NCBI RefSeq assembly: GCF_036365525.1
Contig: NC_090399.1
Span: 8,555,558-8,619,557 of the forward strand
Direction of reading: 5' to 3'
DNA: 64,000 nt
Source: Heterodontus francisci
Taxonomy: Eukaryota
Shown here: positions 38,632 to 62,669 of the stretch, in pieces
Layout of the letters: the number at the start of each line of letters is the position of its first letter
Numbering within the stretch: the stretch's first letter is position 1
The notes under the pieces: generated by a model
Told to the model about the DNA's origin: nothing
The model's input: the letters and a program-made list of their open reading frames with translations, nothing else
Database searches by the model: none
Position numbers and translations under genes: made by a program

Positions 38632-38847
38632 CTATGCAGTCTGCCTCGATGTCTCTAAAACTAAGTTTTGCATGTCTGACAGAGCAGTCTCCAGAGATTT
38701 TGAAAACCATTCTGCATTAGTCTCTTCACAGCAGTTGAAGGCAGAGACCGAGAAATTGATATGGTCTTCTAGGGGATTGTACCAGACGCCATATCCATCT
38801 GGCACCATGGGACCAAAGCACATCACGCAGTCTGCTCGGGCGGCCAC
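38632..38847 (-). CDS. Carnitine O-acetyltransferase-like, terminal exon (VAARADCVMCFGPMVPDGYGVWYNP...LETSRQTA*)
   Basis: Acceptor cctgtacag|; 216 nt including TAG; DCVM-x-FGP-x-VPDGYGV-x-YNP motif of CrAT. Confidence 0.95.
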   Translation of the reverse strand: MAARADCVMCFGPMVPDGYGVWYNPLEDHINFSVSAFNCCEETNAEWFSKSLETALSDMQNLVLETSRQTA

Positions 38848-39329
38848 CTGTACAGGAGAAAAGATTCAACATTAAGGCCAATCTTTTAGCATCAAAACAA
38901 CTAACACATGCACAGTACATGAACTTACCTCCACCTCCACCAGACTCACCATTTTGGACTCTCAGCCCAGGAAATGAAAACCACACATTTCTATTGCCAC
39001 GCCATCCTCACAGCTTTACTCCTTACCATGAGTAAGAGATGAAGCCTAGGTCAAAGTGTCTGATCCTGAATGACTACAGAGGCTGCCAGGATTAATCATA
39101 GATGTTGCTTCAGTAAATCAGACCATCCAAAGCTTGTAAGTCAGTGGGAGGATTCAAGGGTGATCAATGTGAGATGCACTGGTTGAGTTGGAGTTCACAA
39201 GATGCCAAAAGGATAAAACTACACAGCTCAATATACCAATACTGAGTTCTGATTGAACCAGAAAGTTAGAGGCATACAAATTAGGAACATGCGTTGACTG
39301 GGAGGGGCAGTACCTTCGTCTGCAACGTA

Positions 39330-40215
39330 GCTGGGCTCCGTTCAGAGTCAGAAGATAATGAGTCCAAGCTCTGACCCCAGAACCAAATATAGTCTAGGCT
39401 GACAGTCCAGTACTGAGTGGGTGCTGCACTGTCAGGGTGAGATGTTAAACCAAGCTCTCAGCTCTTTTTCACTAGTTCTCCCAATGCTCTGGTCAACATT
39501 CCACCAACACCACTAAAAATAGGTGAAGTCATCATTTACCTCATTCTTGTTCATGGGATCATGCTATGCACAAAATGCCTGCCATTTTCAAAGTAATTGT
39601 GTTGAGACATGGATGTGCTGAGGCATCTCTGACCAAAGTGATAGATGCTATATAAATGCAGGACTCTCTTTTCCTACCTCTGCTGTCCTCCAATTGTGCA
39701 TGGCCAACAATTCCAACCTAATTTAGTGCCTAGAAATACACATAAAGATTAGACTGGATTTCCTGGTTATTGACAGCCAAATCCAACAAAAAAAAAACAA
39801 TTGCTCCACGTGTACCGAGACCTTTCATCTCTTTAAGCATTTGTCCAGTAAAGTTTAATTTCAGTGATAATTTTAACTTCAACTATTCTGTCAGATAGCA
39901 TGGTTCTGCATGATGACTGTAATCTGTAAATGATCTTCCCTCATATTCTGTACATTTTCCTCTGATTTTGCAAGTTCCCCTCCCAGACCTTAACTCTCTC
40001 CTGTGAGTCAAAAGGTTGAACACACAGGTCCCATCCAAACTCGAGTGCTAAATCTAGGTTGACACTTCAATGCTGTACCATAGGAAGTCTACCTCAGTGT
40101 TATTACTGAGGGAGTGCTGCATTGTTGAAGGTGCTGTCTTTTGGATGAGATGTTAAATCGAGTCTCTGCCTACCTGTTCAGGGGGAGCTAAAATATCCTA
40201 TGGCATTATTTGAAG
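39330..40215 (+). mobile_element. Two old DeuSINE fragments (~39330-39670 and ~40000-40215)
   Basis: gagtcagaag...gtgctgcactgtc...gagatgttaaac core. Confidence 0.55.
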
Positions 40216-40249
40216 AGTGGGACAGCAGGTACAGAGATAGTGAATGAAT

Positions 40250-42150
40250 TCCCTAGACTTTCAATTGGTCCCAGCAGTATGGAAGGTAGCAAACACAGTA
40301 CCACTATTCGAGAAAGGAGGGAGAGAGAAAACACAGGGAACTATAGGCCAGCTAGTCTGACATCAGTAATAGGCAAAATGCTAGAATCTATTATTAAGGA
40401 TGTGGTAAGAGGGCACTTAGAAAATCATAAAATGATTAGGCAGAGTTCACATGGATTTATGCCAAATTGAGGATGTAACTAGTACGATGGATAAGGGGGA
40501 CCCAGTGGATGTAGTGTACGTAGATTTTCGAAAAGCATTCAATAAGATGCAATACAACAGGTTATTACACAAAATTAAGGCACATCAGATGGGGATAATA
40601 TATGAGCGTGGATTGTGGTTGGTTAATGCATAGAAAACAGAGTGGAGGAATAAATGGGTCATTTTCAGGTCGGCAGGTTGTTAACCTTTATTACAAAGGG
40701 ATTGAAATATAAGAGTAAAGAAGTCTTAATATTATACAGGGAATATTGTGTATAGTTTTGGTCTCCTTACCTATGAAAGGATATACTTGCTTTACAGGAA
40801 GTGCATTGAAGGGATGAGGGGATTGTCTTATGAGGAGAGATTGAATAGATGAGGTCTACAGTCCCTAGAGTTGAGAAGAATGAAAGGTGATAATACTGAA
40901 ATATATAAAATTAGAATCATAGAATAGTTACAGCACAGAAGGAGGCCATTCAGCCTGTCAAGACTGTGCCAGCTACTCAGCTAGTTCCACTCCCCTGCCT
41001 TTTACCCATGGTCCTACAATTTTTTTCTCCAAATAATTGTCCAATGCCCTTTTGAAAGCCACAATTGAACCTATCTCCACCACACTCTCAGACAGTGCAT
41101 TCCAGATCCTAACCAGTGTGTAAAAAAAAAAGTTTTTCCTCATGTTGCCTCTCTTTCTTTTGCAACTGCCTTAAACCATATCGTCCTTGCTTTTGTACAT
41201 TAAGCCTTTAGTCTTAAAGCCCAGGATTCCATGTGCCTTATTAACTGCTTTCTCATCCTGCCTTTAATAAGTTGTGCACATATCTTTTAGAATCCCTTCA
41301 GAATTGTACCCTTTAATTTATACTGCCTTTCTATGTTCTTCCTATAAAAATGTATCACTTCACAATTCTCTGCATTAAATTTCATTTGCTATGTGTCCAC
41401 CCATTCCACCAGACTATGTCCTCTTGAAGTTTAGCACTATCTTCCTCACAGTTCACAATACTGCCAAGTTTTGTGTCATCTACAAATTTTTATAGAAATT
41501 GTGCCCTATACACCCAAGTTCAGATCATTAATATAGATCAAGAAAAGTAGTGGTCCCAATACTGACCCCTGGGGAACTCAACTATCTACCTTCCTCCAGC
41601 CTGAAAACAACAGCTCACCAATACTTGCTATTTCCTGTCATTCAGCCAACTTTGTCTACATGCTGCCACTGTCCATTTTGTTCCATGGGCTTCAACGTTG
41701 TGGACAAGCATGTTATGTGGCACTTTTATCAAGGAGCTTTTGGAAGTCCATCTATCCCACATCAACTGCATTACCATCATCAACTATCTCTCTCATTTTA
41801 TCAAAAAACTCAATCAAATTAGTTGAACACAATTTTACCTTCACAATCCATGCTGGCTTTCCTTAATTAATTCACATCCGTCTATGTGACTGTTAATTTT
41901 GTCTGAAATTTCTTCACACAAAGTGTTGTGAATTTTGGAATTCTCTCCCTCAGAAGGCTGTGAATGCTCTGTCATTGAGTCATATTCAAGACAGAGTAAT
42001 AAGATTTTTGAATACTAGGGGAAATCAACAGATATTGGGATACTGTGGGAAGGTGAAGATGAAAAGGAAGATCAGCCATGGTCTTATTGAATGGTGGAGC
42101 AGGCTTAAAAGGGACAAATTGCCTACTCCTGCTCCTATTTCTTATCTTCT
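40250..42150. mobile_element. Decayed CR1 fragments in alternating orientation
   Basis: NYRPASLTSVIGKMLESII and VDVVY-x-DF-x-KAF (+); minus-strand RT at ~40915-41900; plus-strand 3' end at ~41910-42150. Confidence 0.75.
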
Positions 42151-42981
42151 CTAGTGAAATTTTATCCTCATCAACCCCCACCAACGGATTCACCTTAATT
42201 GCTGTTTGAGAGATCTGGCTGCCTTTTCTTCTAGATTACGGGGACTGCCTTTCAAACGTAATTATTTGACTGAAATGCTTTGAGACATTCTGAGAATGTG
42301 AAAGATGCTATATAAATTCATTCTTCCTGTCACTGCCCCCACTCCTCCCCTGAGAACAACAAAGCAGATCTACGAAAGACTTTAGTAAAGGCTTTAATAA
42401 AAATGTCTGTAATTCTTCTGTCTTTGAGGACAGAGAAAGCCCATTTAAACCATGTGATTTTAACCATATGATATCACACAGTTAATTGGATGATGCATTT
42501 CAACCAGACATCTCAAAGCACTTCATCTATAAAAGTGCTTTGAATGTTTTAGGCATTCTGTGCACAGCAACATCCCACAAAAAGTAATGAAGTAACAGGA
42601 AACAAATAAAAATAGATTGCTCTTTTCAGGAATAGGGTGCTCTCTTAAATCAGGGACTTAATTTTCCCAGTGTTATTTTCAGTGCACTGTTTAACACATT
42701 TGTGTTCAAATCCAGTCTCTGGATTTTAGGAGTGTGCAAAAAATGACACTAAAAGTAAATTAAAGTTCAATGTTTAATAAGAAGCTAAATGATGAGCTAT
42801 CATTTAACATTTAACTCTAAAGATATTTAGCCCATGTTCATTTCAATTTATTTTTCATTTGAAATCTGTTATGTTCTCCTGAAGTATTATATACACCCAA
42901 CTTAAGAACTACAACCTCAAATGATCATAGGGTCAGATTGCTCCAGAAAGTCTGAATATATAGAAGGGTAAATTTTCCAAG

Positions 42982-43762
42982 TGTCAGGCAAACCCCCCAC
43001 CCAAGACAGAGGTACACATTATTTTGCCTCATGAACATTAAAACTTAAAAATTGCAAGTTCCTGACTGGAAAGACATTTTCATCGTACCAGACAATGTGG
43101 AAACAAAGGAAGCCAGTCCCTGCCCCCAATACACAGAAAGAGACCGGTCAAACCAGTCGGTCACGTGACCACCTCCTGGCCAACTCGGGAAGTTTTAAAC
43201 TGGACAAACAGATTTTGAACTCAGAACACCGTGTGCTGATGAACTGAGAACATGTCCTCGCCTGTCTGCCTGCTTCCATCTGCTTTCCATGGAACTGAAT
43301 CTTGTGAAAACATGTGAAACACAAAGAGAGAAAGGTTTCCTACATGAACAAGATTTTAAGAAGACTACTGGGCCCCAATGAAAAGCAGGACTACTTACAA
43401 AACGACTACAGTGAGCTCAAAGCACCGTGACAAGACAGTGCCTCAAACTGTTCCACCTTATCTTTTCTGTCCCTATTTGCATATGTATACCGCGTGTGCA
43501 TGCTAGCGTGGGTGTGTCATATATCCGTAGGCGTGAACCATATTACAGTTTAAGCTTTAAGTTTTAATAAAATTTCATCTTCTTTCAACTTGAGAAAGCC
43601 TGTGTGAATTGGTTTCTTTGTCTTATAATTGGAAAACGGTGAACAAGGATTCACAAAGGGGGGAGCTCAAAACACAGTGTGTTTAAAATTAAACCCTGTT
43701 ACAATAAGTCCAGGTGAAGATAGTAACAGACCCCTAGACACCTTTCGCACCTGGTCATAACA
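42982..43762 (+). mobile_element. Solo LTR (probably Gypsy-type), ~780 bp
   Basis: TGTCAGG...GTCATAACA termini; internal TATA-like ttttaaa (~43193) and AATAAA (43566-43571); TSD imperfect (caag / aagg). Confidence 0.65.
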
Positions 43763-43988
43763 AAGGCACCACACCACAGGCTGGACCTTGCACACAGCTA
43801 CATATTTCAGAAAATCATGGGCATGCTACCTGCAATTGTACAATAAGCACTGGACAGAGGGCCTTTGAAATGAGACAGTGAAGAATATCTGGGTGTGACT
43901 GCTGTGTGGTAATCCCATTGACAATTCAGGAGATACTGTAATTATTATTATTCCCTGACATTATTCCCTGTTCCCAGTTTAGACATAC

Positions 43989-44126
43989 CTGTCCTGTTGA
44001 GAGCCTCCAGTGTGTCGCCACAGCAAAAGATGTGTCCATGAAGATCTCTGGCACACTCAGACCTTCTTCAATAGCCTGCAGCTTCAGGCCCAGCAAGTGC
44101 CTGTCAATCGCCATTCCTTTAAGTGC
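43989..44126 (-). CDS. CRAT-like exon (ALKGMAIDRHLLGLKLQAIEEGLSVPEIFMDTSFAVATHWRLSTGQ)
   Basis: cacag| ... |gtatgt; 138 nt; DRHLLGLK motif; the STS motif reads STG. Confidence 0.95.
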
Positions 44127-44344
44127 CTGTGAGTAAAATAGAACAAGTATGTTCTTTGAAAGTAAAAGATTCTGTTCAAATTCCTCAGATAGTTAATGAG
44201 CGCTTACTGCTTCAATTATCCTATCCAGTTATCTGTATAATGCTAGGTTTAATAATAGTCCCTAATTGCACAGTCGATACTTGAGCTATGAAGTGTGTTA
44301 AACCATCATAGACACTACTATTTTCATCAACCATAACCTATATT

Positions 44345-45004
44345 GTATCAGGCCTGTGTCCTCAGTACCTTGCTCTTTGACAGCGAGGCCTGGACAACGT
44401 ATGTCAGCCAAGAGCGACGTCTCAATTCATTCCATCTTCGCTGCCTCCGGAGAATACTTGGCATCAGGTGGCAGGACCGTATCTCCAACACAGGAGTCCT
44501 CGAGGTGGCCAACATCCCCAGCTTATACACACTACTGAGTCAGCGGCGCTTGAGATGGCTTGGCCATGTGAGCCGCATGGAAGATGGCAGGATCCCCAAA
44601 GACACATTGTACAGCGAGCTCGCCACTGGTATCAGACCCACCGACCGTCCATGTCTCCGCTTTAAAGACGTCTGCAAACGCGACATGAAATCCTGTGACA
44701 TTGATCACAAGTCGTGGGAGTCAGTTGCCAGCGTCCGCCAGAGCTGGTGGGCAGCCATAAAGGCGGGGCTAAAGTGTGGCGAGTCGAAGAGACTTAGTAG
44801 TTGGCAGGAAAAAAGAGAGGCGCAAGGGGAGAGCCAACTGTGTAACAGCCCCGACAAACAAATTTCTCTGCAGCACCTGTGGAAAAGCCTCTCACTCCAG
44901 AATTGGCCTTTATAGCCACTCCAGGCGCTGCTTCACAAACCACTGACCACCTCCAGGCGCTTATCCATTGTCTCTCGAGATAAGGAGGCCGAAGAAGAAG
45001 AAGA
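44345..45004 (+). mobile_element. Young RTE-clade LINE 3' part with TSD
   Basis: YQACVLSTLL, RCLRRILGI-x-WQD and RLRWLGHV-x-RM-x-DGRIPK; (GAA)n tail; 12-bp TSD ATAACCTATATT (44333-44344 and 45005-45016). Confidence 0.93.
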
Positions 45005-45604
45005 ATAACCTATATTCCAACAACATAGATCAAGTCCCTCTTGTAACATTCTCTTATATAATAAGGTTTACCTAAAGTCTCATGGCCACGCACAGATTGA
45101 AATACTAACCAACATCCCAATAATAATGGGAAAAAGGATTAACAGCTATAATACCGTACATACCAAAATGTCAAAATTATCAGCAGTTCCCTCTGCTTTC
45201 TTCAATATGAAGCCATGGCCACTACCTTGCCCTTAACACTACTTACACATTCCCTTAACTGATTTACATCCTCAGATTCATAGAATCCTTTTGTACTTCA
45301 TCATTCATCTCATTTCAGAAATGTCTTATTCTGCTCTCTTTTCTATAGCTTGTGATATTCTGTATTCTGAGACTTTCTCCTCTCACAAATGTCATCTACC
45401 ATTTTCTCACTCAATTCTATCTCGAGAAGCTCATAGAAGAAACAATCTTTCAGACCATTAGGTTAATTGGAATTACATTGGCCATTGATCTTACCCTCTC
45501 CCAGGAAATTGGATCACAAAGTCTCAACAAAAAAAGCCAAACCACTACCAGAACTGGCATGCAACAGATTTCATGGAACAGTTTGGATTCAGATTCCCTC
45601 TTAC

Positions 45605-45667
45605 CATGTCTGTGTAAGCACCATGGCAATCGACAGCTTTCCTCAATGCTGCTATCTTCTGGCCCAA
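45605..45667 (-). CDS. CRAT-like 63-nt exon (LGQKIAALRKAVDCHGAYTDM)
   Basis: ttccttgaataacag| ... |gtaag; 63 nt, phase 0-0; aligns to CrAT EHQKVELLRKAVQAHRGYTDR. Not in the ORF track. Confidence 0.92.
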
Positions 45668-45880
45668 CTGTTATTCAAGGAAGAGAAAAGTATATAATGT
45701 TAATCATGGTGAACTGCACAATATCAAAAATGCATTCAGAAAAAGGTTGGTTTGCAATCATTTGCTTTGTAACATGTTAGAGTGATTTCCCTCACATGGT
45801 AAAACTGCATGTGATCAGTTTGTCTCTGCCTGGTTGGCCCTTGGTATCTTGAAGATACTATTTAATGCTGGTGTCATTGC

Positions 45881-47217
45881 AATCAGTGAGTATGGTCCTC
45901 CAGTCAGGATCAACACTGGGATCAGTGAGTGGGAATCCCCAGTCAGGATCAACACTGGGATCAGTGAGTGGGAATCCCAGTCAGGATCAACACTGGGATC
46001 AGTGAGTGGGAATCCCCAGTCAGGATCAACACTGGGATCAGTGAGTGGGAATCCCCAGTCAGGATCAACACTGGGATCAGTGAGTGGGAATCCCCAGTCA
46101 GGATCAACACTGGGATCAGTGAGTGGGAATCCCAGTCAGGATCAACACTGGGATCAGTGAGTGGGAATCCCCAGTCAGGATCAACACTGGGATCAGTGAG
46201 TGGGAATCCCCAGTCAGGATCAACACTGGGATCAGCGAGTGAGGATCCCAGTCAGGATCAACACTGGGATCAGTGAGTGAGGATCCCCAGTCAGGATCAA
46301 CACTGGGATCAGTGAGTGGGAATCCCCAATCAGGATCAACACTGGGATCAGTGAGTGGGAATCCCCAGTCAGGATCAACACTGGGATCAGTGAGTGGGAA
46401 TCCCCAGTCAGGATCAACAATGGGATCAGTGAGTGGGAATCCCCAGTCAGGATCAACACTGGGATCAGTGAGAGAGGATCCCCAGTCAAGATCAACCCTG
46501 GGATCAGTGAGAGAGGATCCCCAGTCAGGATCAACACTGGGATCAGTGAGTGAGGATCCCAGTCAGGATCAACCCTGGGATCAGTGAGAGAGGATCCCCA
46601 GTCAGGATCAACACTGGGATCAGTGAGTGGGAATCCCCAGTCAGGATCAACACTGGGATCAGTGAGTGAGGATCCCAGTCAGGATCAACCCTGGGATCAG
46701 TGAGAGAGGATCCCCAGTCAGGATCAACACTGGGATGGTGAGTGAGAATCCCAGTCAGGATCAACACTGGGATTAGTGAGTGGGAATCCCCAGTCAGGAT
46801 CAACACTGGGATCAGTGAGTGAGGATCCCCAGTCAGGATCAACACTGGGATCAGTGAGTGGGAATCCCCAGTCAGGATCAACACTGGGATTAGTGAGAGA
46901 GGATCCCCAGTCAGGATCAACACTGGGATCAGTGAGTGAGAATCCCAGTCAGGATCAACACTGGGATTAGTGAGAGAGGATCTCAGTCAGGATCAACACT
47001 GGGATCAGTGAGTGGGAATCCCAGTCAGGATCAACACTGGGATCAGTGAGTGAGGATCCCAGTCAGGATCAACACTGGGATCAGTGAATGAGGATCCTAG
47101 TCAGGATCAACACTGGGATCAGTGAGTGAAGATCCCAGTCAGGATCAACACTGGGATCAGTGAATGAGGATCCTAGTCAGGATCAACACTGGGATCAGTG
47201 AGAGAGGATTCCCAGTG
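45881..47217. repeat. 38/39-bp minisatellite (cagtcaggatcaacactgggatcagtgagtgggaatccc) x ~34
   Basis: Tandem units are directly visible; they explain the 13-aa periodic ORFs. Confidence 0.95.
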
Positions 47218-47349
47218 ATTAGTACTCCCAATGTACAATAAGTTCAGGTATTCCTAAACCAGTTCCGAATGAACTACAAGCCTAGGGCACAAAATGGCCA
47301 ACAATTTGACTGGATGGATAGCTATTGTGGAAAAGTCACAATTCACACT

Positions 47350-47885
47350 TCTTACTTGAGAAAGGATATACTGGCACTGGAGAGGGTGCAGAGGAGGTTC
47401 ACTAGGTTGATTCCGGAGTTGAGGGGGTTGGCTTATGAGGAGAGACTGAGTAGATTGGGATTATATTCATTGGAGTTCAGAAGAATGAGGGGGGATCTTA
47501 TAGAAACATATAAAATAATGAAGGGAATAGATAAGATACAAGTAGAGAGGATGTTTCCACTGGCAGGTGAAGCTAGGACAAGAGGGATTAGCCTCAAGAT
47601 TAGAGGGAGCAGATTTAGGACTGAATTAAGAAGGAACTTCTTCACCCAGAGGGTTGTTAATCTATGGAATTCCTTGCCCAGTGAAGTAGTTGACGCTTCT
47701 TCAGTAAACGTCTTTAAAGCTAAGGTAGATATCTTTTTGAACAATAAAGGAATTAAGGGATACGGTGGGAGCGCGGGTAAGTGGATCTGAGTCCACGAAA
47801 AGATCAGCCATGATCTTATTGAATGGCGCAGCAGGCTCGAGGGGCCGGACGGCCTACTCCTGCTCCTAGTTCTTATGATCTTATT
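47350..47885 (+). mobile_element. Young CR1 3' end, near-identical to 33585-34110 in opposite orientation
   Basis: Nearly the same peptide (...ERMFPLAGEARTRG...GYGGSAGKWI) and 3'UTR. Confidence 0.93.
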
Positions 47886-48574
47886 ACAGCAATATGATTG
47901 AGACTAAATCATTTGGAGGAGCATTGCTCTAAACTGGGCCTTGTCATACCTGACCTGCCAATGGTTGGTGTTAACACCAGGAGCTGATAATGGGAAAAGT
48001 TTGCTCATTCTCATCATTGAAACCTTTCATTTTTAAAAGTGCAAAGACATTTATTTATAGAGTAAAGGACTGTGGCTCTCATGACAGATATAGAGTCAGA
48101 TTGAGAGGTAGGATGCTGTGAACACGTTGAGGCAGAGCTAATTTTCCAAAGGTTTGTAAGCTTCCAGAAGGCTGCATAAACGTTGAGCTAATCTCTACTT
48201 TGGCTATTGTTTTCCTCTGCGGGTTGTATTTTTTTCATGATTTCATTACTAACAGCCAGATATTTGTGCACACGACATCTATCATAGGTTTCGTTGCCTC
48301 TATATTTGTGTCCTATCCTCGAAAGCAATACCATCAGCAAAGTCAGACTCATTGGAAATCTTTTCCCGGCTTTGTTCCTTGACTTTTAGTTGAGTACAGA
48401 ATATGGTATAACTCTGACTGAAGCAATATATAGCCAAATATACACTGCCTACACAGACCAAGTAGAGAAGCTGGTCTGAAAATTCCACTGGAGTTCTCCC
48501 ACCATAACATCATCAGCAAATCGGTGGAGACACAATTTAAATGGCCATTGATGTTGTTGCTATGGAATTTTGGA

Positions 48575-49445
48575 AACCATCCCTGTCTCAGCTCATCTGC
48601 TGGTGAAACCCTCATCCATGCCTTTGTTATCTGTGAAGTTGACTATTCCAACGCACTCCTGTCTGGCCTCCCACATTCGACCCTCTGCCTCGATTTTACA
48701 ATTGTCATCTTTGTTTTCAAATCCCTCCAAGGTCTTGCCCCTCCCCATCTCTGTCACATCCTCCAGCCCCACAACCCTGTGCTTCTGTAATTCTGGCCTC
48801 TTGAACATCCCCAATTTTAATCGCTCCACAATTCGTGGCCATGCCTTCAGTCACCTAGGCTCTAAGTTCTGGAATTCCCTCCCTAAACCTCTTTCCTCCT
48901 TCAAGACACTCCTTAAAACCTACCAAGTGTTTTGGTCACCTGCCCAAATACCGCTTTTTAAAAAATGTGTTCTTGGGATGTGAGCATCACTGGCAAGGCC
49001 AGCATTTATTACCCACCCCTAACTGCCCCTGAGCAGGTGGTGGTGAGCCACCTACAACTGGGCCATTTCAGAGGGCAGTTAAGAGCCAACCACATTAGTG
49101 TGGGTCTGGAGTCACATGTAAGGACAGCAGATTTTCTCCCCCACAGAACATTAGTGAACCAGATGGGTTTTCAGGACAATCGGCAGTTTCATAATCACTA
49201 TTAATGATTCAGATTCGGTCATTAATTGAAATTAAATTTCTCCAGATGCCGTGGTGGGATTTGAACTCCTGTCTCAGGAATATAAGTCTGGGCCTCTAGA
49301 TTACTAGTTCAGTTACATAACCACTGTGCTACTCTCCCCCTTATGTGGCTCGGCATCACATTTTGCCTGATAATGATTCCATGAAGTGCCTTAGGATGTT
49401 TCATTAAGTTAAAGGTGCTATATAAATACAAGTTGCTTTTGTTCT
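48575..49445 (+). mobile_element. L2 fragment interrupted by a minus-strand tRNA-SINE (~48965-49338)
   Basis: ETLIHAFV...DYSNALL; the L2 tail resumes after the SINE. Confidence 0.75.
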
Positions 49446-49615: not shown

Positions 49616-49751
49616 CTCCTTTTCTGGATCATCCATACTTGTCACAAACTGCAAGGAATCTGTAGATGATGATCGGATTACATCAGTGCGTCCTAGGTGG
49701 AAGTTTCTCAGTGAAACGCTTTCGCATGTGGCACACAGCTCCTTGTACATT
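49616..49751 (-). CDS. CRAT-like exon (MYKELCATCESVSLRNFHLGRTDVIRSSSTDSLQFVTSMDDPEKE)
   Basis: ttttcag| ... |gtact; 136 nt; aligns to CrAT CATYESASLRMFHLGRTDTIRS. Confidence 0.95.
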
Positions 49752-51965: not shown

Positions 51966-52088
51966 CTAAAATAGGCCAATTGTAGTGCCATTTGAACAAA
52001 GGAATCTGGACTCATGCCATGTAGTTTGGGGAAATCTTTGCCAAAGTTCCTGTAGGTGAAGCAGCTGATATCCAAGTCATTAACTAAA
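51966..52088 (-). CDS. CRAT-like exon (LVNDLDISCFTYRNFGKDFPKLHGMSPDSFVQMALQLAYFR)
   Basis: gttacag| ... |gtacgt; 123 nt; FGKDFPK and SPD-x-F-x-QMALQLAY family signature. Confidence 0.95.
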
Positions 52089-52558: not shown

Positions 52559-53987
52559 GGGGTAGAGTTTCCCTGGTGGCTACAAATCAGTGATCCAGGT
52601 GCAAACGCTGCCAATCTTGAGTAGTGATTTATCCTGGAGTTTCCGTTCAAACTCATTTGCATACCGCCAAACACAAAATTCCTCATCAGCCAGGGCAATC
52701 AGGTACCATTTCAAAATGTTATTGTTGTTTTCAAACTTGCTTCAAAAAATATTTTTTGATATATTTTAAGAGTGGTAACTTGGTGCAATTTTATTAATAG
52801 GGTTCATCACAAAAAATAAGCATTTTAAATCACTAAAAATGACTTTTAAAATATGTATAGGAATATTTGCTAGTTATACTGGTCAGTTTCTTAGTCAGTA
52901 AAAAGTAGCATTTGTGCCACACAAGTGCCAGGCAATGAGCATCTCTAATGAGTGAATCTAACCATCTCCCCTTGACATTCAATTGCATTACCATCGCTGA
53001 ATCCCCCACCATCAACATCCTGGACGTTACCATTGACCAGAAACTTAACTGGACCAACCACATAAGTACTGTAGCTGCAAGAGCAGGTCAGAGGCTGGCT
53101 ATTATGTGGTGAGTAACCCACATCCTGATTCTTCAAAGCCTATCCAGCTACAAGGCACAAGTCAGGAGTGTGATGGAATACTCTCCACTTGCCTGGATGG
53201 GTGCAGCTCCAACAACACTCAAGAAGCTTGACATCATCCAGGACAAAGCAACTCGCTTGATCGACATCCCATCCATCACCTTAAATGTTCACTCCATCCA
53301 CCACCAGTGCACAGTGGCAGCAGTGTGTACCATCTACAAGATGCACTGCAGTAACTTACTGAAACCCCTTCAACAGTACCTCACAAACCCACAACCTCTA
53401 CCACCCAGAAGAGCAAGGGCAGCAGGCACCATCTGCAAGTTGCCCTCCAACTCACACACCATCCTGACTTGGAACTATATCGCCGTTCCTTCACAATCGC
53501 TGGATCAAGATCCTGGAACTCCCTTCCTAACAGCACTGTGACTGTGCCTACACTTGGACCTGGACTGCAGCAGTTCTAAATGGCAGCTCATCACTACCTT
53601 TTCAGGGGCAATTTGGGATGGGCAACAAATGCTGTCCTTGCCGGTGACACCCTCATCCCATGAATGAATAAAAAATAACTTTCAAAAGTGTTCCTATTTG
53701 TATCCTTGCACCCAAAAGAACCAGCTTAATTTTCAGAGCTTCCTGGAAAGCCAGGAAATAGGCGCAATTTGTGGAAACTCCCAATGGTGACCACTTCGTC
53801 CTGCAATCATGGCCAGTTTTATGCATGGGGCCAGCTTCTAGTTCGATGTTTTCTAAACTATTGCCCAAGATTGTGAAAACTTGATTTGTGCTGAATTTGG
53901 AATTCCGTGATCCTTTGGGCTGGTTTAGCCAATTTCATGTCATTGCTCCGGAAAAAAACTCACGTAATAAAATGGAAACTCTACCCC
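52559..53987. mobile_element. Non-autonomous TIR element (Harbinger-like MITE) with a nested family B LINE (~52905-53675)
   Basis: Perfect 14-bp TIRs GGGGTAGAGTTTCC (52559-52572) and GGAAACTCTACCCC (53974-53987); flanks cat / gat. Confidence 0.7.
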
Positions 53988-54321
53988 GATGGCTTCTGGG
54001 CAGACACTCAGTGAGATTTCCTGGTGAGATTTCCTGTGGCAAAATTGTAAGTATATTCTTTATAGACATGGTTACAATTTCACCACACTGAGCGCACAGA
54101 GGAAATCTCCTCTCTGTGAGCTTTTGTGCATTCAGGATTATATTGAATCCATTGTACAGGGTGGAAGCTCACGCTCTGAGAAGGAAGAGGAAAAACTAGA
54201 TTGGACGGTGATGTATAAATAAGACAGTTGAATAGCGGGTTCTAAACATTTAGGCTTTCTTTCATTACATGCATCCAATCCCACAAATACATCAGGCATA
54301 ACTGACAGCTACAATACTCAC

Positions 54322-54441
54322 ATGTCCAGATTCTGTTTGGCGTGCTCAATGTCTCTTTTTATCTCTGGAGTGATGTAAAAATAAAGTTTCTTGGGTAATG
54401 GCAGAGGAATCATGGGAGCTCGAACTGTATCTGGGTCCTTA
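54322..54441 (-). CDS. CRAT-like exon (KDPDTVRAPMIPLPLPKKLYFYITPEIKRDIEHAKQNLD)
   Basis: ctttctag| ... |gtgagt; 120 nt; aligns to CrAT [33 protein letters not shown]. Confidence 0.95.
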
Positions 54442-55250
54442 CTAGAAAGGCCATACATGAATTTAAGGTTTTTATCTTCCATAAACAAGAACATTGATTT
54501 TTTTTTAAAACACAGCACGGCATCAATTAAAAGTTAAGTATTATACAAAGATAATGCTGGACGTTCATTATATACATATCACCTCATTCCCTACAGAGGT
54601 CAAGTGAGCCCGAGTTAAGAAACTGGTTACAGCTGTTGTCCATGTCAGTCAGTGGAGACAGTGGGCAGGGATGTGTTACTGTCGTCCCATCCAGTGGGAG
54701 ATGGAACTAACCTGCCTTACAACTGGTTCCGACCCTTCCAAATCTCACACTGACTTTTGGATTCAGCGCTCCATCCCTGTCTCCATTAAAGCACTGCCCA
54801 GGGGTTTAAACTTACAACCTCCTATTTGGGGTGTTCAGACTGATCATGGAAAACCACAAAGATATACATAGTTCTTCACACATTTCTTACTTTAAACAAA
54901 TTCCATATATTTACCAGATTAAACTGACTTCCAAATGTACCCTGAATAAAAATATCAGATTGTTCTGCCATCTCTGCAGCTATTAAATCACTCCTGACTA
55001 AACAAGAGCCATGTTTATTGTTAAGTAGAGTATAAAAGTACTCGGAATACTATTCAATGGGCTGTACATCTGCAAATTAGATTGAATTGTATCCATCAAT
55101 TAAAAACACAGATAGAAAATATTTGGGTCCAATTTCTACTCAACGCTGCATAGTAATTCTTCAGGGGTGACCATTCATGTCTAGTGTAAAGACTTAATGG
55201 CTTGTGCGAAGTTAAAAATGATGTCTGAATACAATGCTGGTGACATGGAC

Positions 55251-55716
55251 GGGTGTCATTTGTGGCTTAGTTGGTAGCACTCTTGCCTCAGAGTCAGAAG
55301 GTTGTGGGGTTCAAGTCTTACTCCAGGACTTGAACACAAATTAAAACTGACACTCCGGTACAGTCCTGAGGGAGGGCTGCACTGTCGGAGGTGTTGTCTG
55401 TTGACTGAGATGTTAAACCAAGGCCCCATCTAGCCTCTCAGGTGGACGTAAAAGACCCCAAGGCACTATTTTGAAGAAGAGCAGGGGAATTATCCCAGGT
55501 ATCTTAACCAATATTTATCCCTCAATCAACATCACTAAAACAGATTATCTGGTCATTATCACATTGCTGTTTGTGGGAGCTTGCTGTGTGTAAGTTGGCT
55601 ACCATGTATTCTACATTACAACAGTGACGACACTTCGAAAGTATTTCACTGGCTGTAAAGCATTTTGGGTTGTCCTGTGGTTGTGAAAGGTGCTCAATAA
55701 ATGCAAGTCTTTCTTT
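55251..55716 (+). mobile_element. Full-length DeuSINE (SacSINE1-like)
   Basis: A-box tggcttagttggt, B-box ggttcaagtc, Deu-like core and L2-type tail taaatgcaagtctttcttt. Confidence 0.82.
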
Positions 55717-56037
55717 ATTGGTAGACCAGTGCTGAATGCCAAAGATGCTCACTTGACTTTGCTCTGCTGCTATCCTAACAGAGGCCGTAACATAATTGAT
55801 ATAAATAAGTTAATGTCTCTATTCAAATAGCAGACAAAAGCAAACACACTATGCACATCCCCTCTATATCAACAACAGTAATTATCAGTCTTCTGAATTA
55901 AGTCAATTTTCAATCATCTGCATGCTCTCTTAAGCACAGATAATACAAGAGGAGAAAAATGGGGACACATTTAGAAGTTAAACAACATCTTAAGTAAGTC
56001 ACTAAAAAGGATTTTGCTTCATTCTGCACTTTCTTAC

Positions 56038-56138
56038 CAATAATCTAGAACATGATCTAATATGGTGACAATGGGTGGGCCCTCTGCAGAAGACTGTTCA
56101 TATATAACACCACAGGATCCATCCTCCCCGACAATGAA
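56038..56138 (-). CDS. CRAT-like active-site exon (FIVGEDGSCGVIYEQSSAEGPPIVTILDHVLDY); catalytic His replaced by Gln
   Basis: gttacag| ... |gtaag; 101 nt; aligns without gaps to CrAT FIVAEDGSCGLVYEHAAAEGPPIVTLLDYV. Not in the ORF track. Confidence 0.95.
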
Positions 56139-56929
56139 CTGTAACATAATCAGATAATCTTAGATACTCAGGTACAAGAGATATTGCAGGACATTAGTCC
56201 AGCTGGTTTATTTTCTTCATTCATACATGATATACACCAGGTAAAATTAATTTGCATTCAGAATCAGAACTAGGATAAGACAGAAATCTTGGTTACCAGG
56301 ACAACAGGGAACTTGTCAGATCAAACAAACAGATCAAAGTTTTTTTTTGAAAAGTAGAGGCTGCAGGGTTCTAGCATCTGAAGAACAATGGGTTTCACCT
56401 TCCCAGATTTTCAGATTATAAACAAGGAGTCAGGTGATTCTAAAGATGTAAATGTGCATGGTAGCTGGAAACAATGAAAATCTCAGGTGGCTCTGCTGAA
56501 GCCAGACTTGTGGACTTTGCATATTGGAAAAGGATAACAGGCTATTGACTTGTGATTCCAGATAAATGTAACAGATTTTCTGAAGATAGACAGGCTGTAA
56601 GAAAGGAGGACAACTGGCGGTGGCAGTCTTGAGAGAGAGAGGGAACGGCTGCTCTCAGAAGATTCACAGCAAAAGGCTGTGAAGACTCAAACTTGTTCTG
56701 AAAGTTGAAATTTGCAGAGAAGAAAAGACCAACAGGATCACCAGGAATTGCCTCCACAGATGTCCAGGTTGAAAGTGTTCAGAGAAATGAATGAAGAAGA
56801 TATGGATTTTTGAAAAGCTCTGGGCAATCCAACCCATTGCAACTGGGAGGAATTTGGGATTTTTAACCACAAAGATTTTTCCATCAAAGAGGATTGTGTA
56901 ATGCGTAAGTGTGGTTTTCAAGTGTTTTA

Positions 56930-57330
56930 CACATTGTACAGCGAGTTCGCCACTGGTATCAGACCCACCGGCTGTCCATGTCTCCGCTTTAAAGACGTCT
57001 GCAAACGTGACATGAAGTCCTGTGACATTGATCACAAGTTGTGGGAGTCAGTTGCCAGCGTTCGCCAGAGCTGGCGGGCAGCCATAAAGGCAGGGCTAAT
57101 GAGTAGCGAGTCGAAGAGACTTAGCAGTTGGCAGGAAAAAAGACAGAAGTGCAAGGAGAGAGCCAACTGTGTAACAGCCCCAACAAACAAATTTTTCTGC
57201 AGCACCTGTGGAAGAGCCTGTCACTCTAGAATTGGCCTTTATAGCCACTCCAGGCGCTGCTCCACACACCACTGACCACCTCCAGGCGCTTACCCATTGT
57301 CTCTCGAGACAAGGAGGCCAAAGAAGAAAT
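56930..57330 (+). mobile_element. RTE LINE 3' end
   Basis: Near-identical to 44603-45000; C2H2-like C-terminus CSTCGRACHSRIGLYSH. Confidence 0.9.
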
Positions 57331-57689
57331 AAGAAAATACTTTTCTTTGTAAATTGGACGATCAACTACTTCCAAAGTACTACTTAGTTAATGGGGATTT
57401 CTTCTAGTTTAGTTTTTCTAATAAAAGTCTTCAAATATGAAATCTTGTAATTCTTTAAATTGGGCTCCAGGTTCGTAACTCATATTTTAATGTGAATGGT
57501 CTCACTGAGATTGAAACAGTAGTGATTACAGTACTGGACAAGCAACCCAGTGAGTTTAAATTATATCATGACAAGTTCAGAAATTTAGGGAACGATCTGG
57601 CCATTTGTGGGCAGTCCGAGAATGAATGACCATGAAGGGATGCAGAGTGCCATAAAAATTCCACTGGCTCACTGCGAAGGAAACGTGCT

Positions 57690-59480
57690 TTTTTTATTCA
57701 TTCATGGGATGTGGGCATCACTGGCTAGGCCAACATTTATTGCCCATCTCTAATTGTCTTTGAGAAGGTGGTGGTGGTGCCTTATTGAACCGCTGCAGTC
57801 CATGTGGGGTAGGTACACTCACAGTGCTGTTAGGAAGGGTGATCCAGGATTTTGACCCAGGAACGGTGATATAGTTCCAAGTCAGGATGGTGTGTGGCTT
57901 GGAGGGGAACTTGCAGGTGGTGCTGTTCCTATGCATTTGCTGCCCTTGTCCTTCTAGGTGGGAGAGGTCACGGGTTTGGAAGGTACTGCCTGAGTAGCCT
58001 TGGTGAGTTGCTGCAGTGCATCTTGTCAATGTACACTCTGCTGCCACTGTGCGTCATTGGTGGAGGGAGTGAATGTTTGTGGACAGGGAGCCAATCAAGT
58101 GGGCAGCTTTGTCCTGGATGGTGTCGAGCTTCTTGAGTGTATTGCAGCTGCACTCATCCTGGCAAGTGGAGAGTATTCCATCACACTCCTGACTTGTGCC
58201 TTGTAGATGGTGGACAGGCTTTGGGGAGTTAGGAGGTGAGTTACTTGCCGCACGATTCCTAGCCTCTGACCTGCTCTTGTAGCCACGGTATTTATATGGT
58301 TACTCCAGTTCAGTTTCTGGTCAATGGTAACGCCCAGGATGTTGGTAGTGGGAGATTCAGCAATGTTAATGCTGTTGAATGTCAAGGGGGGATGGGTAGA
58401 TTCTCTCTTGTTGGAGATGGTCATTGCCTGGCACTTGTCAGGTGCAAATGTTACTTGCCACTTATCAGCCCAAGCCTGGATATTGTCCAGGTCTTGCTGC
58501 ATTTCTACACGGACTGCTTCAGTATCTGAGGAGTCGTGAATGGTGCTGAACATTGTGCAATCATCAGCGAACATCCCCACTTCTGACCTTATGATTGAAG
58601 GAAGGTCATTGATGAAGCAGCTGAAGATGGCTGGGCCTAGGACACTACCCTGAGGAACTCCTGCAGTAATGTCCTGGTGACCTCCACCAACCATAATCAT
58701 CTACTTTTGTGCTAGGGATGACTCCAAACAGTAGAGAGTTTTCCCCCTGATTCCCATTGACTCCAGTTTTGCTAGGGCTCCTTGATATCATACTCAGTCA
58801 AATGCTGCCTTGATGTCAAGGGCAGTCACTCTCACCTCACCTCTTGAGTTCAGCTCTTTTGTCCATGTTTGAACCAAGGCTGTAATGAGGTCAGGAGCTG
58901 AGTGGCCCTGGCAGAACCCAAATTGAGCGTCACTGAGCAGATTATTGCTAAGCAAGTGCCGCTTGATAGCACTGTCAACGACACCTTCCATCACTTTACT
59001 GATGATTGAGAGTAGACTGATGGGGCAGTAATTGGCCAGGTTGGATTTGTCCTGCTTTTTGTGTACAGGACATACCTGGGCAATTTTTCACATTGTCAGG
59101 TAGATGCCAGTGTTGTAGCTGTACTGGAACAGCTTGGCTAGGGGCGCAGCAAGTTCTGGAGCACAAGTCTTCAATACTGTTGCTGGAATTTTGTCAGGGT
59201 CGTAGCCTTTGTAGTATCCAGTGCCTTCAGTCATTTCTTGACATCATGTGGAGTGAATCCAACTGGCTGAAGACTGGCATCTGTGATGCTGGGAACTTCA
59301 GGAGGGGGGCCGAGATGGATCATCCACTTGGCACTTCTGGCTGAAGATTGTTGCAAATGCTTCAGCCTTATCATTCGCACTGATGTGCTGGGCTCCCCCA
59401 TCATTGAGGATGAAGATATTTGTGGAGCCACCTCCTCCAGTTAGTTGTTTAATTGTCCACCACCATTCACGACTGGATTT
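57690..59480 (-). mobile_element. LINE family B, longest copy (RT domain to 3' end)
   Basis: AQFGF, ALDIKAAFD, GVPQGSVLGP and MFADD; family B tail. Confidence 0.9.
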
Positions 59481-60124
59481 CTACCAGGTCTGGCCTAGTC
59501 ATGACTCTAGTCCCACTGTCAGGTTGATGCTCTCGGTTGTAAAAAAAAAACAAGTCGGCAAGGCAACTAGGGACGAGGGTAATAAATGTGACCTTGGCAT
59601 CATTGTTCACATCCCAAGGATAAATTATTTTCAAAAATATTCCCTGGACTATCCAATCATCTCTTATCAATTATTTATCCCCAACCTTTACATTCTACTC
59701 AACCGGATATCAATCTACTCTTATTTTTGTGAAGAACCCAATGAACACAGTAAACAAAGTCTATATGTCCCCGCACTCCTGGTGTAAGAAGAGTGTAAAC
59801 GGTACAAATTGTGTGCCCGGCAGAGGAGCCATTATCTTCATGCAAGGAATGATAAAACAGCTAGTATTCATTTATCTAACTTCGCACATGCAGCAAGCAT
59901 GTAACTAGCACACACTTCCTGTACAAATCACATTGAGCTCCCACATGTAATAGCTCCCAGCACTGGATCGATATGGAATTTAATGCTTTAAGACATTGTA
60001 AATAATAATACTTCTGAATGCTCAATGCAATTTCTTTATGGAAAGCATTTCACTGAGGGCATCAAGGAACTACACCTCTTTTTACAGTATAATGAGTTCA
60101 GCGTGCTGCCTCGGTCTCTTGTAC

Positions 60125-60303
60125 CTGCAGAGTTTTGTCAAACCAACGGTTTCCACTGTTCGAGTAGCTTCCTCCTCCATGCAGCATCTGAGCTGCCATG
60201 CGGCTGGTGTACTTCTCCTCAGAGATCTTCAGGACTGGAGAATCGAGACACACGGTGAAAATACTCTTCTGAATGGCCCGCACCGATTCTCTGTTCAGTT
60301 TGT
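60125..60303 (-). CDS. CRAT-like exon (DKLNRESVRAIQKSIFTVCLD...QMLHGGGSYSNSGNRWFDKTLQ)
   Basis: tcctcag| ... |gtac; 179 nt; LHGGG and NRWFDK motifs. Confidence 0.96.
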
Positions 60304-60354
60304 CTGAGGAAGATATCAATTGCTGTGTTACAGAAGGGAAAGTAAAAAATAAAG

Positions 60355-60720
60355 GAATGTGAGGAGGCCATTCAGCCACCTGAGCCTATTTCACTATTTA
60401 ACCAGATCACGGGTGGTGTGTAACTCAACTCCATTTACATGCCTTTGACCTACATCACTTCCCTTAACATCCTTACCAGTCTCAGTCTTAGAAAGTTCAA
60501 TTGGCCCCTAGCATCCACAGCCATTTGGGGGGTTGGGAGGGGAATGGCAGGGGAAAGAGTTCCAGATTTTCACTTCCCTTTGTTTGACAAAGTACTCCCT
60601 GATTTTGTTTTTGAACGGCCGAGCTCGAATTTTAAATTTGTGCACTCTTGTTCTTGATTTGCCCACCAGAGGAAATAAAATCTCTGTGTCTACTGTGTCA
60701 AATCCTTTCATCATTTTAGA
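60355..60720 (-). mobile_element. Old CR1 3' fragment
   Basis: MKGFD-x-VD-x-E-x-LFPLVG-x-SRTR-x-HKFKI. Confidence 0.7.
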
Positions 60721-60899
60721 CACATCAAGGAGCACATTGTACATTATATATACAGGAACTGTATGTACATTATATTTGTAGGAACAGTATCCAATACAAG
60801 GTAACTCTCTATCTAAATTAAATGTTCACTTATCCTCCAGTTCTAGTTCTTGCGAATGAGCCATTACACATTGTATTCCTGACATACAGTCCTTAACGT

Positions 60900-61850
60900 A
60901 TGGAGCATAAAATACTGCCAACAGTAGGAAGTTATGGTGAGCCTTTATAAAACACTGGTTCGGCCACATCTGGAGTACTCTGTCTAATTCTGGGCACCAC
61001 ACTTTCAGAAGGATGTGAAGGTTTTCGGGAGGGCGGCACAGTGGCGCAGTGGTTAGCACTGCAGCCTCACAGCTCCAGGGACCCGGGTTCGATTCTGGGT
61101 ACTGCCTGTGTGGAGGTTGCAAGTTCTCCCTGTGTCTGCGTGGGTTTTCTCCGGGTGCTCCGGTTTCCTCCCACAAGCCAAAAGACTTGCAGGTTGGTAG
61201 GTAAATTGACCATTATAAATTGTCACTAGTATAGGTAGGTGGTAGGGAAATATAGGGACAGGTGGGGATGTTTGGTAGGAATATAGGATTAGTGTAGGAT
61301 TAGTATAAATGGGTGGTTGATGGTCGGCACAGACTCGGTGGGCCGAAGGGCCTGTTTCAGTGCTGTATCTCTAATCTAATCAAAAGATTTACGAGAATGG
61401 TTGTAGGGATGAGGGACTTCAGTTCTGTGGACAGATTGGAGAAACTGGGGCTATTTCTCCTGAGAAAAGGTGAGAGCAGATTTGAGGGAGATGTTCAAAC
61501 CCATGAGGGGTCTAGATAGATTAGAGAGCAAAATGTTCCCCTTAGCAAAAGAGTCAAGAACCAGAGGACACAGGTTTAAAGTGATTGGCACAATAACTAA
61601 AGGCAACATGAGGAAAAACTTGTCTATTCAGAAAGTGGTGTGGTTAGGATGTGGAAATACACTACCTGAGAGAGTGGTGGAGGCAGATTCAATCAGGGCT
61701 TTCACAGGAGAATTGGGTAAGCAGTTGAGGGAAAACATCTGCAAAGCTCTGGAGACAGGGCAGGGGAGTGGGACTAACTAAACCGTACTTGCAGTGAGCC
61801 AGCACAGGCTCAATGGGCAGACTGGCCTCCTTCTGTGCTGTAACCATTCT
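60900..61850 (+). mobile_element. CR1 fragment interrupted by a V-SINE
   Basis: LYKTLVRPHLEY before the SINE and RFTRMV-x-GM after it. Confidence 0.75.
61031..61380 (+). mobile_element. V-SINE (HE1-type elasmobranch SINE)
   Basis: tRNA head (gtggcgcagtggttagc / gggttcgattc); V-domain gtctgcgtgggttttctccgggtgctccggtttcctcccaca; CR1-type tail gggccgaagggcctgtttc. Confidence 0.88.
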
Positions 61851-62449
61851 CACAGAATTGGTGACAAAAGAGAAAAATTTAAAGGCCTTTAACCAGAATG
61901 GAAGGAAATCCCAATTCAAAAATAACACTGTGGGGAAAACAATCTTCACAGATCAGGTGTAAAACCATATTTCATTTGTGCTACATGAATAGTGGGGATT
62001 CTTCAGAAAACTGGGCAGTGACACATCTTTCCTATTGTAGTTTTCCGTAATACCTTTTCCACTCTTCCCTCAAAAATCTGGATCTTCTTAAATTGGGTAA
62101 TGTTCCCTGACAGGATGGCTGAGATGTCCTAAGCCTTCTTGGTGATCTGAGTCAGTCCTATCCCTGCTTCATCTTCAGGTCGACTGTACGTACTAATACT
62201 GATGATCTTTGCCATTTCTTTCTCAAACTCTCCCCCAAACCCAACAGCTTCCTCCACTTAGTGGTGCACTTGACAACATTGAATCAGTCTTAAATAACTC
62301 TGGGCTCAATTGAGTTAACTTGTGGAAGCTTTATCGAGATTAAAATTGAATCATGATATTACAAACCAGTCATCTATTTCTCACAATTTAGTTTAAAAAC
62401 CAAATGGGTTCATCCCCTTTCCAGCATTGCAATCATTCCTAGATTCTAC

Positions 62450-62624
62450 CTTTCATGAGGGTATTGTAGGCCTGTCCCCACGTGTTCCTGTGATCACTGG
62501 TGAGCACACCCAGTGGCTCCTTGTCCGTTTTCCAAGAAAGATTCCGGATACGCTGCAACTGCATGTGAATCTGATCCACAGTTAGAGGGGAGCCATCACT
62601 GTTATACACATCCAGGTGAAAGAA
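62450..62624 (-). CDS. CRAT-like exon (FFHLDVYNSDGSPLTVDQIHMQLQRIRNLSWKTDKEPLGVLTSDHRNTWGQAYNTLMK); upstream exons lie beyond the window
   Basis: ctctttgcag| ... |gtaga; 175 nt; aligns to CrAT FFVLDVYHSDGTPLT...EPVGILTSNHRNSW. Confidence 0.95.
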
Positions 62625-62669
62625 CTGCAAAGAGAGTTAGTGACAACCATCAACAGCATCAGTGAAACC

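Follow-up and report, generated by a model that had tools for sequence, protein, structure and literature searches.

Gene structure

What might a carnitine acetyltransferase (CRAT) gene still do once glutamine has taken the place of its catalytic histidine? The question is raised by a gene on the minus strand of the 64,000-nucleotide stretch of Heterodontus francisci DNA analyzed here (the window). Its nine coding exons were found as the initial annotation had described them in number, size, and GT-AG borders (AG at 9/9 acceptors, GT at 8/8 internal donors). In coding order, and all on the minus strand, they occupy positions 62450..62624 (175 nt; CRAT residues 211–269; the first exon in the window), 60125..60303 (179 nt; residues 269–328), 56038..56138 (101 nt; 329–362), 54322..54441 (120 nt; 362–402), 51966..52088 (123 nt; 402–443), 49616..49751 (136 nt; 443–488), 45605..45667 (63 nt; 489–509), 43989..44126 (138 nt; 510–555), and 38632..38847 (216 nt; 556–626 and the TAG stop codon). 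Joined, they give 1251 nt, or 416 amino acids plus TAG in one stop-free frame; the other two frames contain 22 and 18 stops. The model covers CRAT residues 211–626, with residues 1–210 lying past position 64000.

The zebra-shark protein P0004, to which the model is 95% identical, matched 9/9 exons in a tblastn search (E values from 7e-5 to 1e-37). Identity to ray proteins is 90–91%, with no stops or frameshifts. The claim that the 416-residue frame follows CRAT 211–626 also held, since 416/416 positions align to bat CRAT P0131 (65% identity). Over the stretch present in the window, P0004 aligned without gaps to the CRAT chains of the human and mouse crystal structures, and the last exon alone matched CRAT chains at E 6e-23. 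Exons 62450..62624 and 60125..60303 together correspond to a 118-residue unit that is duplicated in the bat model. The 2.6 kb scanned 3' of the stop contained a single match to AATAAA/ATTAAA, a weak candidate poly(A) signal (AATAAA, 37640..37645, minus strand, 986 nt past the stop). Of 22 sequencing runs in which the last exon plus 3' flanking sequence occurs, none was listed as an RNA run, which says nothing on expression either way. The only neighbor shown in the window is a downstream butyrophilin-like gene.

Orthology and origin

Judged by its sequence, the window gene belongs to CRATB (cratb), a carnitine acetyltransferase paralog, as one of its shark members. CRATB forms a 100/100 clade (33 rows in the tree) that is sister to canonical CRAT, and the proteins named carnitine O-acetyltransferase b group monophyletically with the window gene within it. 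The gene lies outside the CRAT/crata orthogroup: it did not group with bat and frog CRAT, and the C-terminal AKL is absent. Resolved CRATB branches track the species tree, and the stem is longer than that of CRAT (0.28 vs. 0.12). The PF00755 profile matched ortholog P0004 with an E value of 1.6e-179 (598.7 bits; cut-off 22.3). One highly diverged protein lacking both CoA lysines, P0364, groups inside CRATB, a placement that may be a composition artefact.

CRATB occurs in sharks and rays, in bony fish together with lungfish and coelacanth, and in amphibians and reptiles; no mammalian CRATB was found. Both paralogs are present together in 11/11 teleost species compared, and a separate crata is listed on a holocephalan scaffold. 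Published gene tables list a CRAT-like gene within MHC class III and assign crata to chromosomes paralogous to the MHC, which suggests that a genome duplication gave rise to CRATB, in MHC class III. The sawfish and reedfish tables give the order PPT2 - CRAT-like - PRRT1, the CRAT-like gene being assigned by gene name alone; in reedfish it and CRAT/crata are on different chromosomes. A bichir gene model with Gln343 is fused to SKIV2L. CRAT was not mentioned in an Anolis MHC paper (text and two supplements) or in the text of an axolotl MHC paper.

Loss of active-site residues

His343 was absent in 112 of the 123 scorable CRATB rows and present in 85/85 canonical rows. In the window, the codon at this position (56094..56096, minus strand, in exon 56038..56138) is CAG, so that the histidine is indeed missing, as initially annotated. 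Gln is found in 6/6 other shark and ray proteins; it is common to 7/7 chondrichthyan rows and most bony-fish and tetrapod orthologs, and the anole and snake proteins have it in the alignment. Two further active-site changes had been overlooked. Ser554, the oxyanion-hole residue of the STS motif, is replaced with Gly in the window (GGA, 43994-43992, minus strand, in exon 43989..44126) and in 122/122 CRATB rows, while it is Ser in 87/87 canonical rows. Tyr452 is replaced with Cys (TGC, 49726-49724, minus strand, in exon 49616..49751); the tyrosine was retained in 1/124 CRATB rows, and Cys452, found in 100/124, was lost in reptiles, lungfish, and gar.

The residues seen at CRATB position 343 are Q, A, P, and H, a variation unlike that of a catalytic residue. 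The 11 CRATB rows with His343 are explained by two nested reversions (in Cypriniformes and a mormyrid), each a one-base change from Gln codons, and these rows keep C452 and G554. His/non-His at this position required 3 changes on the tree, or 7 when all states were counted; with the outgroup root, the pattern can be read as one loss of His343 followed by two nested regains.

H343 is the general base of CRAT (PMC11852590), and the H473A substitution of the equivalent histidine makes CPT1A inactive while leaving its fold intact (PMC5826573). With neither a general base nor the hydroxyl of the oxyanion hole left, acyl transfer would be lost, and CRATB very probably lacks normal transferase activity. 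The replacement of Ser554 and Tyr452 thus appears to place the non-catalytic role proposed in the initial annotation on firmer ground than was recognized there.

Conservation of the ligand site

The initial annotation had named seven retained residues, along with the preserved exon architecture, in support of possible CoA binding and purifying selection, and 7/7 are present in the window: E347 and D356 (exon 56038..56138), K419, K423, and D430 (codons 52039-52037, 52027-52025, and 52006-52004, minus strand, in exon 51966..52088), E453 (exon 49616..49751), and M564 (last exon). However, the window protein keeps 223/270 conserved CRAT positions, and the chance that all seven would survive anyway is 0.26. 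Across CRATB, conservation of the CoA site did not exceed that of conserved positions drawn at random (P 0.61 with four residues, 0.37 with six). The list was therefore rejected as evidence of CoA binding, although binding itself is compatible with the data. K423 is likewise not exceptional, as about 8/20 other window lysines are as invariant (7 at 100%). D430 was kept in 31/122 and E453 in 37/123 CRATB rows, with D430 changed to N and E453 to D in most ray-finned fish. In a review, these two residues are presented as a structural pair, hydrogen-bonded together (PMC11852590). S454 and S552 are variable across CRATB.

In a 38-row panel, the tunnel was nevertheless largely kept: W102 in 37/37 rows, K423 and Q555 in 38/38, S456 and T553 in 37/38, K419 and T465 in 36/38, and R518 in 34/38. 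The carnitine contacts of CRAT are Y452, S454, T465, R518, and F566. Of these, the window gene keeps 4/5, Y452 being Cys (S454 and T465 are in exon 49616..49751, R518 in exon 43989..44126). Preferential erosion of the carnitine side was considered and rejected (P 0.23 vs. background). The 343/554 pair gave P 0.011, but was picked after the data had been seen. At 21 positions, CRATB and the canonical set are each fixed for a different residue, a count inflated by the latter consisting mostly of one teleost copy; the CRATB-specific invariant residues are D128, W132, R237, W241, K242, D244, and Y382.

Constraint, fold, targeting, and expression

Comparison of orthologs at the protein level supports strong constraint and purifying selection on CRATB; this part of the initial proposal stood, while the residue list did not serve as its basis. 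In teleosts, the rate ratio of CRATB to the His-bearing paralogs was 1.01 (11 species) and 1.02 (10 species). At deep splits, which were not species-matched, CRATB was ca. 2.2-2.5-fold faster than CRAT (0.99 vs. 0.40, 0.78 vs. 0.35, and 1.30 vs. 0.55). The AlphaFold model of the ray ortholog P0003 has a pLDDT of 91.6 and superimposes on human CRAT 1nm8 with an rmsd of 1.0 Å (TM 0.92/0.98), canonical sequences being part of the input alignment. The two-domain CRAT fold is thus predicted to be unchanged.

The PTS1 tripeptide is missing from the last window exon and was absent in the 123 CRATB rows checked. The first 30 residues of 14 CRATB N-termini contain 3-7 basic and 0-1 acidic residues, and the protein is predicted to be imported into mitochondria. 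Full-length orthologs lie on sequencing-run contigs of 2-4 kb (e.g., P0006, 631 amino acids on 2,207 bases), which points to spliced CRATB mRNA.

Possible functions of CRATB

About half of our confidence goes to CRATB being a ligand-binding mitochondrial pseudoenzyme that likely acts as a metabolic regulator. Without His343, Ser554, and Tyr452, the protein is likely to be catalytically dead; acyl-CoA or acylcarnitine would still occupy its tunnel but would not be turned over. In the most speculative step, the state of the ligand might be relayed to a partner via D128, W132, R237, W241, K242, D244, and Y382. A fuller version, which we consider tentative and rather doubtful, is that CRATB is a dedicated mitochondrial sensor of acetyl-CoA/CoA or acylcarnitine in non-mammalian jawed vertebrates, i.e., a CRAT duplicate in MHC class III from which the base and the oxyanion serine were removed, which gained a new partner surface, and which was lost in mammals. 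The stoichiometric CoA/acyl-CoA buffer suggested in the initial annotation is unlikely, since matrix CoA pools far exceed protein levels.

Alternatively, a catalytically dead CRATB could serve, e.g., CRAT or another complex of the matrix as a scaffold or allosteric partner, a role that needs the fold and a new surface but no small-molecule ligand. This is possible but somewhat unlikely. The fixed differences from the canonical set, several of them now aromatic (W132, W241, Y382), the background-level conservation of the CoA set, and the diverged P0364 would all fit, as would yeast Yat2, for which an inactive regulator is among the proposals (PMC4959659). Yet the number of such differences is inflated, and an unused tunnel would not clearly need the invariance of Gly554, W102, Q555, and K423 seen in the panel. 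Unlikely, to a greater degree, is an active enzyme of altered chemistry that, with Cys452 as a nucleophile or His117 as a base, would for example hydrolyze acyl-CoA or transfer the acyl group to a different acceptor. His117 does not vary within the CRATB panel (Tyr in canonical CRAT), Cys452 is widespread, Gly554 is invariant, and residue 347 stays E or D. That the base has migrated to His117 is made less likely by the presence of this residue in 16/126 distant family representatives, most of them with His343, as would be expected of a tolerated structural residue; Cys452 is gone from three lineages, and even the carnitine-independent succinyltransferase activity of CPT1A requires the histidine (PMC5826573).

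A very slow ordinary carnitine acetyltransferase, its activity regained where His343 returned, seems very improbable. Sharks do retain most substrate contacts (S454, T465, R518, S552), and the histidine came back twice, but Cys452 and Gly554 stayed in those rows, position 343 tolerates Ala and Pro too, and a normal His/Tyr/Ser paralog exists in the same species in 11/11 teleost pairs. Least credible of all is that the duplicate is decaying or already a pseudogene, or that the Gln codon reflects an error in the sequence or a private variant. The 5' third of the gene does lie outside the window, but the sharing of Gln343 among chondrichthyans, bony fish, and tetrapods and the uninterrupted similarity to rays speak strongly against it.

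Relation to known proteins

The ligand-binding pseudoenzyme favored here resembles CRAT/crata (PDB 1nm8, 1ndb) in its PF00755 domain, predicted fold, CoA lysines, and at least two common exon boundaries, and differs in the three active-site residues, the missing AKL peroxisomal signal, and the separate clade. Another family member, CPT1C, is regarded mainly as an acyl-CoA (malonyl-CoA) sensor; it keeps its catalytic His, is weakly active, bound to the ER membrane, and known from mammals only. The parallel with CPT1C drawn in the initial annotation is thus a loose analogy, CRATB being different in kind: His-less, predicted to be soluble and mitochondrial, and not found in mammals. Yeast Yat2 is, like CRATB, a carnitine acetyltransferase homolog, with undetectable activity and a role in vivo (PMC4959659), but it belongs to an unrelated fungal lineage and is classed as cytosolic.

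If our reading is correct, this His-less twin of a core metabolic enzyme, retained from sharks to reptiles, would be the clearest pseudoenzyme among vertebrate carnitine acyltransferases and would imply that mitochondrial acyl-CoA is regulated at a further, as yet unstudied level. The carp and mormyrid proteins, in which the histidine has naturally returned, offer a ready-made assay comparison. The gene itself is already annotated as cratb or "carnitine O-acetyltransferase-like" of non-mammalian vertebrates, names that imply an enzyme; its missing histidine is apparently unreported, as no report was found in a literature search that was partly obscured by unrelated matches. Fish transcriptome studies score cratb as an enzyme: in the relevant excerpts of PMC8919083 and PMC11463132, it is handled as an ordinary carnitine acetyltransferase, with no mention of the histidine. 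In tilapia liver, cratb was increased ca. 10-fold under hypoxia (PMC11463132).

A CRAT paralog without the catalytic histidine

Nine minus-strand exons of the sizes proposed in the initial annotation were recovered, with AG at 9/9 acceptors and GT at 8/8 internal donors. Splicing yielded 1251 nt encoding the 416 residues proposed followed by TAG, the remaining two frames containing 22 and 18 stops. Codon 343 (CRAT numbering) is CAG, so that the catalytic His is absent, as had been claimed, and Gln stands in its place; the seven residues named as retained (K419, K423, D430, E453, E347, D356, and M564) were all found. Two further active-site changes, Ser554Gly and Tyr452Cys, had gone unnoticed; in CRAT, Ser554 serves in the oxyanion hole and Tyr452 contacts the carnitine carboxylate. 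Judged by His343 and Ser554, neither of which is present, the window protein is not an active CRAT. Each of the nine exons was matched by the zebra-shark CRATB protein P0004 (95% identity), and the window model aligned with a bat CRAT model, P0131, at 416/416 positions (65% identity). The alignment of P0004 with human and mouse crystal chains over the same stretch was gapless, as expected from the initial annotation, and the Gln faces the catalytic His (His322 in the crystal chain compared, a numbering offset of 21, as in PMC11852590).

The bat model contains an internal two-exon duplication, itself a database error, whose 118-residue period equals the first two window exons combined; thus, at least two exon boundaries are common to the window gene and a mammalian CRAT. 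Conserved intron positions are normal between vertebrate paralogs and, taken alone, are weak evidence of selection.

Phylogeny and sampling

Two protein searches gave 223 proteins, the second contributing the best 120 of 1134 matches. After removal of 13 proteins shorter than 440 residues, the other 210 and the window model were sorted by identity, with diagnostic columns left out: among the matches listed, 124 rows were CRATB-like and 87 were canonical, many of them isoforms or from close species. Among these listed matches, residue 343 was Q in 107, H in 11, A in 3, P in 2, and a gap in 1 of the CRATB rows, versus H in 85 and gaps in 2 of the canonical rows, while residue 554 was Gly in 122/122 CRATB rows and Ser in 87/87 canonical rows. 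Distant family representatives had His343 in 114/126 cases and Ser554 in 114/126.

In a maximum-likelihood tree of 44 rows, the window model was placed next to zebra shark within a 33-row CRATB clade (support 100/100), sister to canonical CRAT (100/98) under a root that depends on three long-branched representatives. The clade included sharks, rays, bichir, paddlefish, gar, bowfin, teleosts, coelacanth, lungfish, caecilian, axolotl, lizards, one snake, and turtles. By sequence, the gene belongs to PF00755 and to the cratb orthogroup; the gene itself is already annotated. Three changes on the tree are needed to explain where His343 is present or absent, read as one stem loss followed by returns in Cypriniformes and in one mormyrid. 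The His is back in P0114, P0138–P0140, P0142, P0143, P0146, P0149, P0150, P0161, and P0167, with C452 and G554 unchanged. Zebrafish was not among the rows sampled in this comparison; if it shares the regained His343, the best-known cratb would resemble an ordinary enzyme. No mammalian CRATB occurred among the best 120 of 1134 matches, and the gene was probably lost in mammals.

Several rows were unusual. P0257, P0301, and P0364 are His-less and very rich in Gly/Ala/Arg/Pro (50–54%); P0257 and P0364 form a long branch adjoining turtle CRATB, and may be orthologs from birds or be placed there by their biased composition. P0239, a diverged CRATB-like gene model without central exons, possibly from a frog, is a long branch among tetrapod CRATB. 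P0217, a grouper CRATB, carries the erroneous database name "catalase".

CoA and carnitine sites

In a panel of 38 CRATB rows picked across lineages, K423 (38/38), K419 (36/38), S456 (37/38), and Q555 (38/38) were kept, while D430 and E453 were kept in 17/38 and 19/38. K419 and K423 are assigned to the CoA 3'-phosphate, and D430 and E453 are hydrogen-bonded to each other (PMC11852590). Against 270 conserved CRAT positions, CoA residue sets were unremarkable (P 0.61 and 0.37); the seven-residue list, offered initially as evidence for CoA binding, was no better kept than background (P 0.37). Eight of the 22 window lysines were invariant in the panel. Carnitine-side W102, Y107, T465, R518, and T553 were conserved about equally, making acylcarnitine an equally good candidate ligand. 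P0364, which groups with turtle CRATB, is missing both CoA lysines. Taken together, these results leave CoA binding by CRATB as a possibility.

D430N, E453D, S454I, and S552R were common in ray-finned CRATB, where Arg552 might fill the trimethylammonium pocket. Shark and ray CRATB (P0003–P0007) had Cys at 110 and Met at 569, the latter including the window residue; these are the residues found in two human variants of CRAT that have been tied to Leigh syndrome (PMC11852590). Canonical teleost rows usually carry Met569 as well, so it is probably not specific.

Constraint, expression, and possible function

The window protein was 90–91% identical to those of four rays. Across 11 teleost species carrying both genes, distances averaged 0.182 for CRATB versus 0.181 for the His-bearing copy, mostly the teleost copy without the C-terminal AKL signal (ratio 1.02 once the mormyrid was left out). 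At deep splits, in a comparison that was not species-matched, CRATB evolved ~2.2–2.5 times faster than AKL-type CRAT. The purifying selection proposed earlier is thus supported by strong protein-level constraint, looser though than on CRAT. Full-length orthologs were called on short contigs from sequencing runs: P0006 has 631 aa within 2,207 bases, whereas the part of the gene inside the window already covers 24 kb. This implies spliced transcripts in relatives, and in tilapia liver cratb rises about 10-fold in hypoxia (PMC11463132). A pseudogene is scarcely credible.

Mutation of the equivalent His in CPT1A (H473A) removes both known activities and leaves the fold intact (PMC5826573), so CRATB, having lost this general base, should be unable to transfer acyl groups. 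We are largely confident that CRATB is without normal transferase activity; residual CRAT activity, for all the His regained in some fishes, is very improbable. Q, A, P, and H are all tolerated at 343, which shows that this position is done with chemistry. An enzyme of changed chemistry, acting through Cys452 or His117, is unlikely. The CRAT fold is predicted to be intact, the model of the ray ortholog (pLDDT 91.6) having an rmsd of 1.0 Å to human CRAT. Twenty-one positions are fixed differently in CRATB and the canonical set, among them D128, W132, R237, W241, K242, D244, and Y382, a candidate new interface. Gly554, W102, Q555, and K423 are invariant, which suggests that the tunnel is still in use. 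We consider a pure scaffold doubtful. That CRATB is a ligand-binding regulator, the reading we prefer, has about an even chance of being right. CRATB may work like CPT1C, yet is separate from it. The same applies to yeast Yat2 (PMC4959659).

CRATB N-termini are basic and almost without acidic residues, and PTS1 was found in 0/123 CRATB rows among the matches listed; zebrafish Cratb likewise has none (PMC8919083). These features suggest location in the mitochondrial matrix. We found no report of the missing His in the open literature; subscription journals, bioRxiv supplements, or database annotation notes may contain one.

Genomic setting

Downstream of CRATB, on the same minus strand, lies a butyrophilin-like gene with an IgV exon (PF07686 profile match, about 14281–14628), separated by an 11-kb intron from a butyrophilin-type IgC exon (PF22705, about 3294–3575, E 2e-23), and a transmembrane exon (about 2147–2266). 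Supplementary gene tables of PMC10751288 place, by gene name, a CRAT-like gene in MHC class III: sawfish chr34 and reedfish chr1 alike list PPT2(−), CRAT-like(+), then PRRT1(+) and TMEM268(−), with butyrophilins near the sawfish gene. A gene named crata appears on chr9 in reedfish and chr12 in lungfish, in sheets that have columns for MHC paralogs, and on one scaffold of a holocephalan; a term search of the main text returned no mention of CRAT. A Gln343 bichir gene model is fused to SKIV2L helicase, a class III gene. Taking the tabulated genes by name, CRATB would have arisen by vertebrate genome duplication, as the copy of CRAT on the MHC side.

Tandem repeats (units of 45, 39, 24, 17–39, and 13–39 bp) and a purine-rich tract occupy 62668–64000, 45900–47216, 5158–5574, 3733–4701, 35557–35887, and 26673–27746, the first two lying inside CRATB introns. 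A minus-strand LINE fragment at 34149–35414 encodes a reverse transcriptase domain (PF00078, E 5e-33) in an open frame of 421 codons, and many fragments similar to it fill the window.
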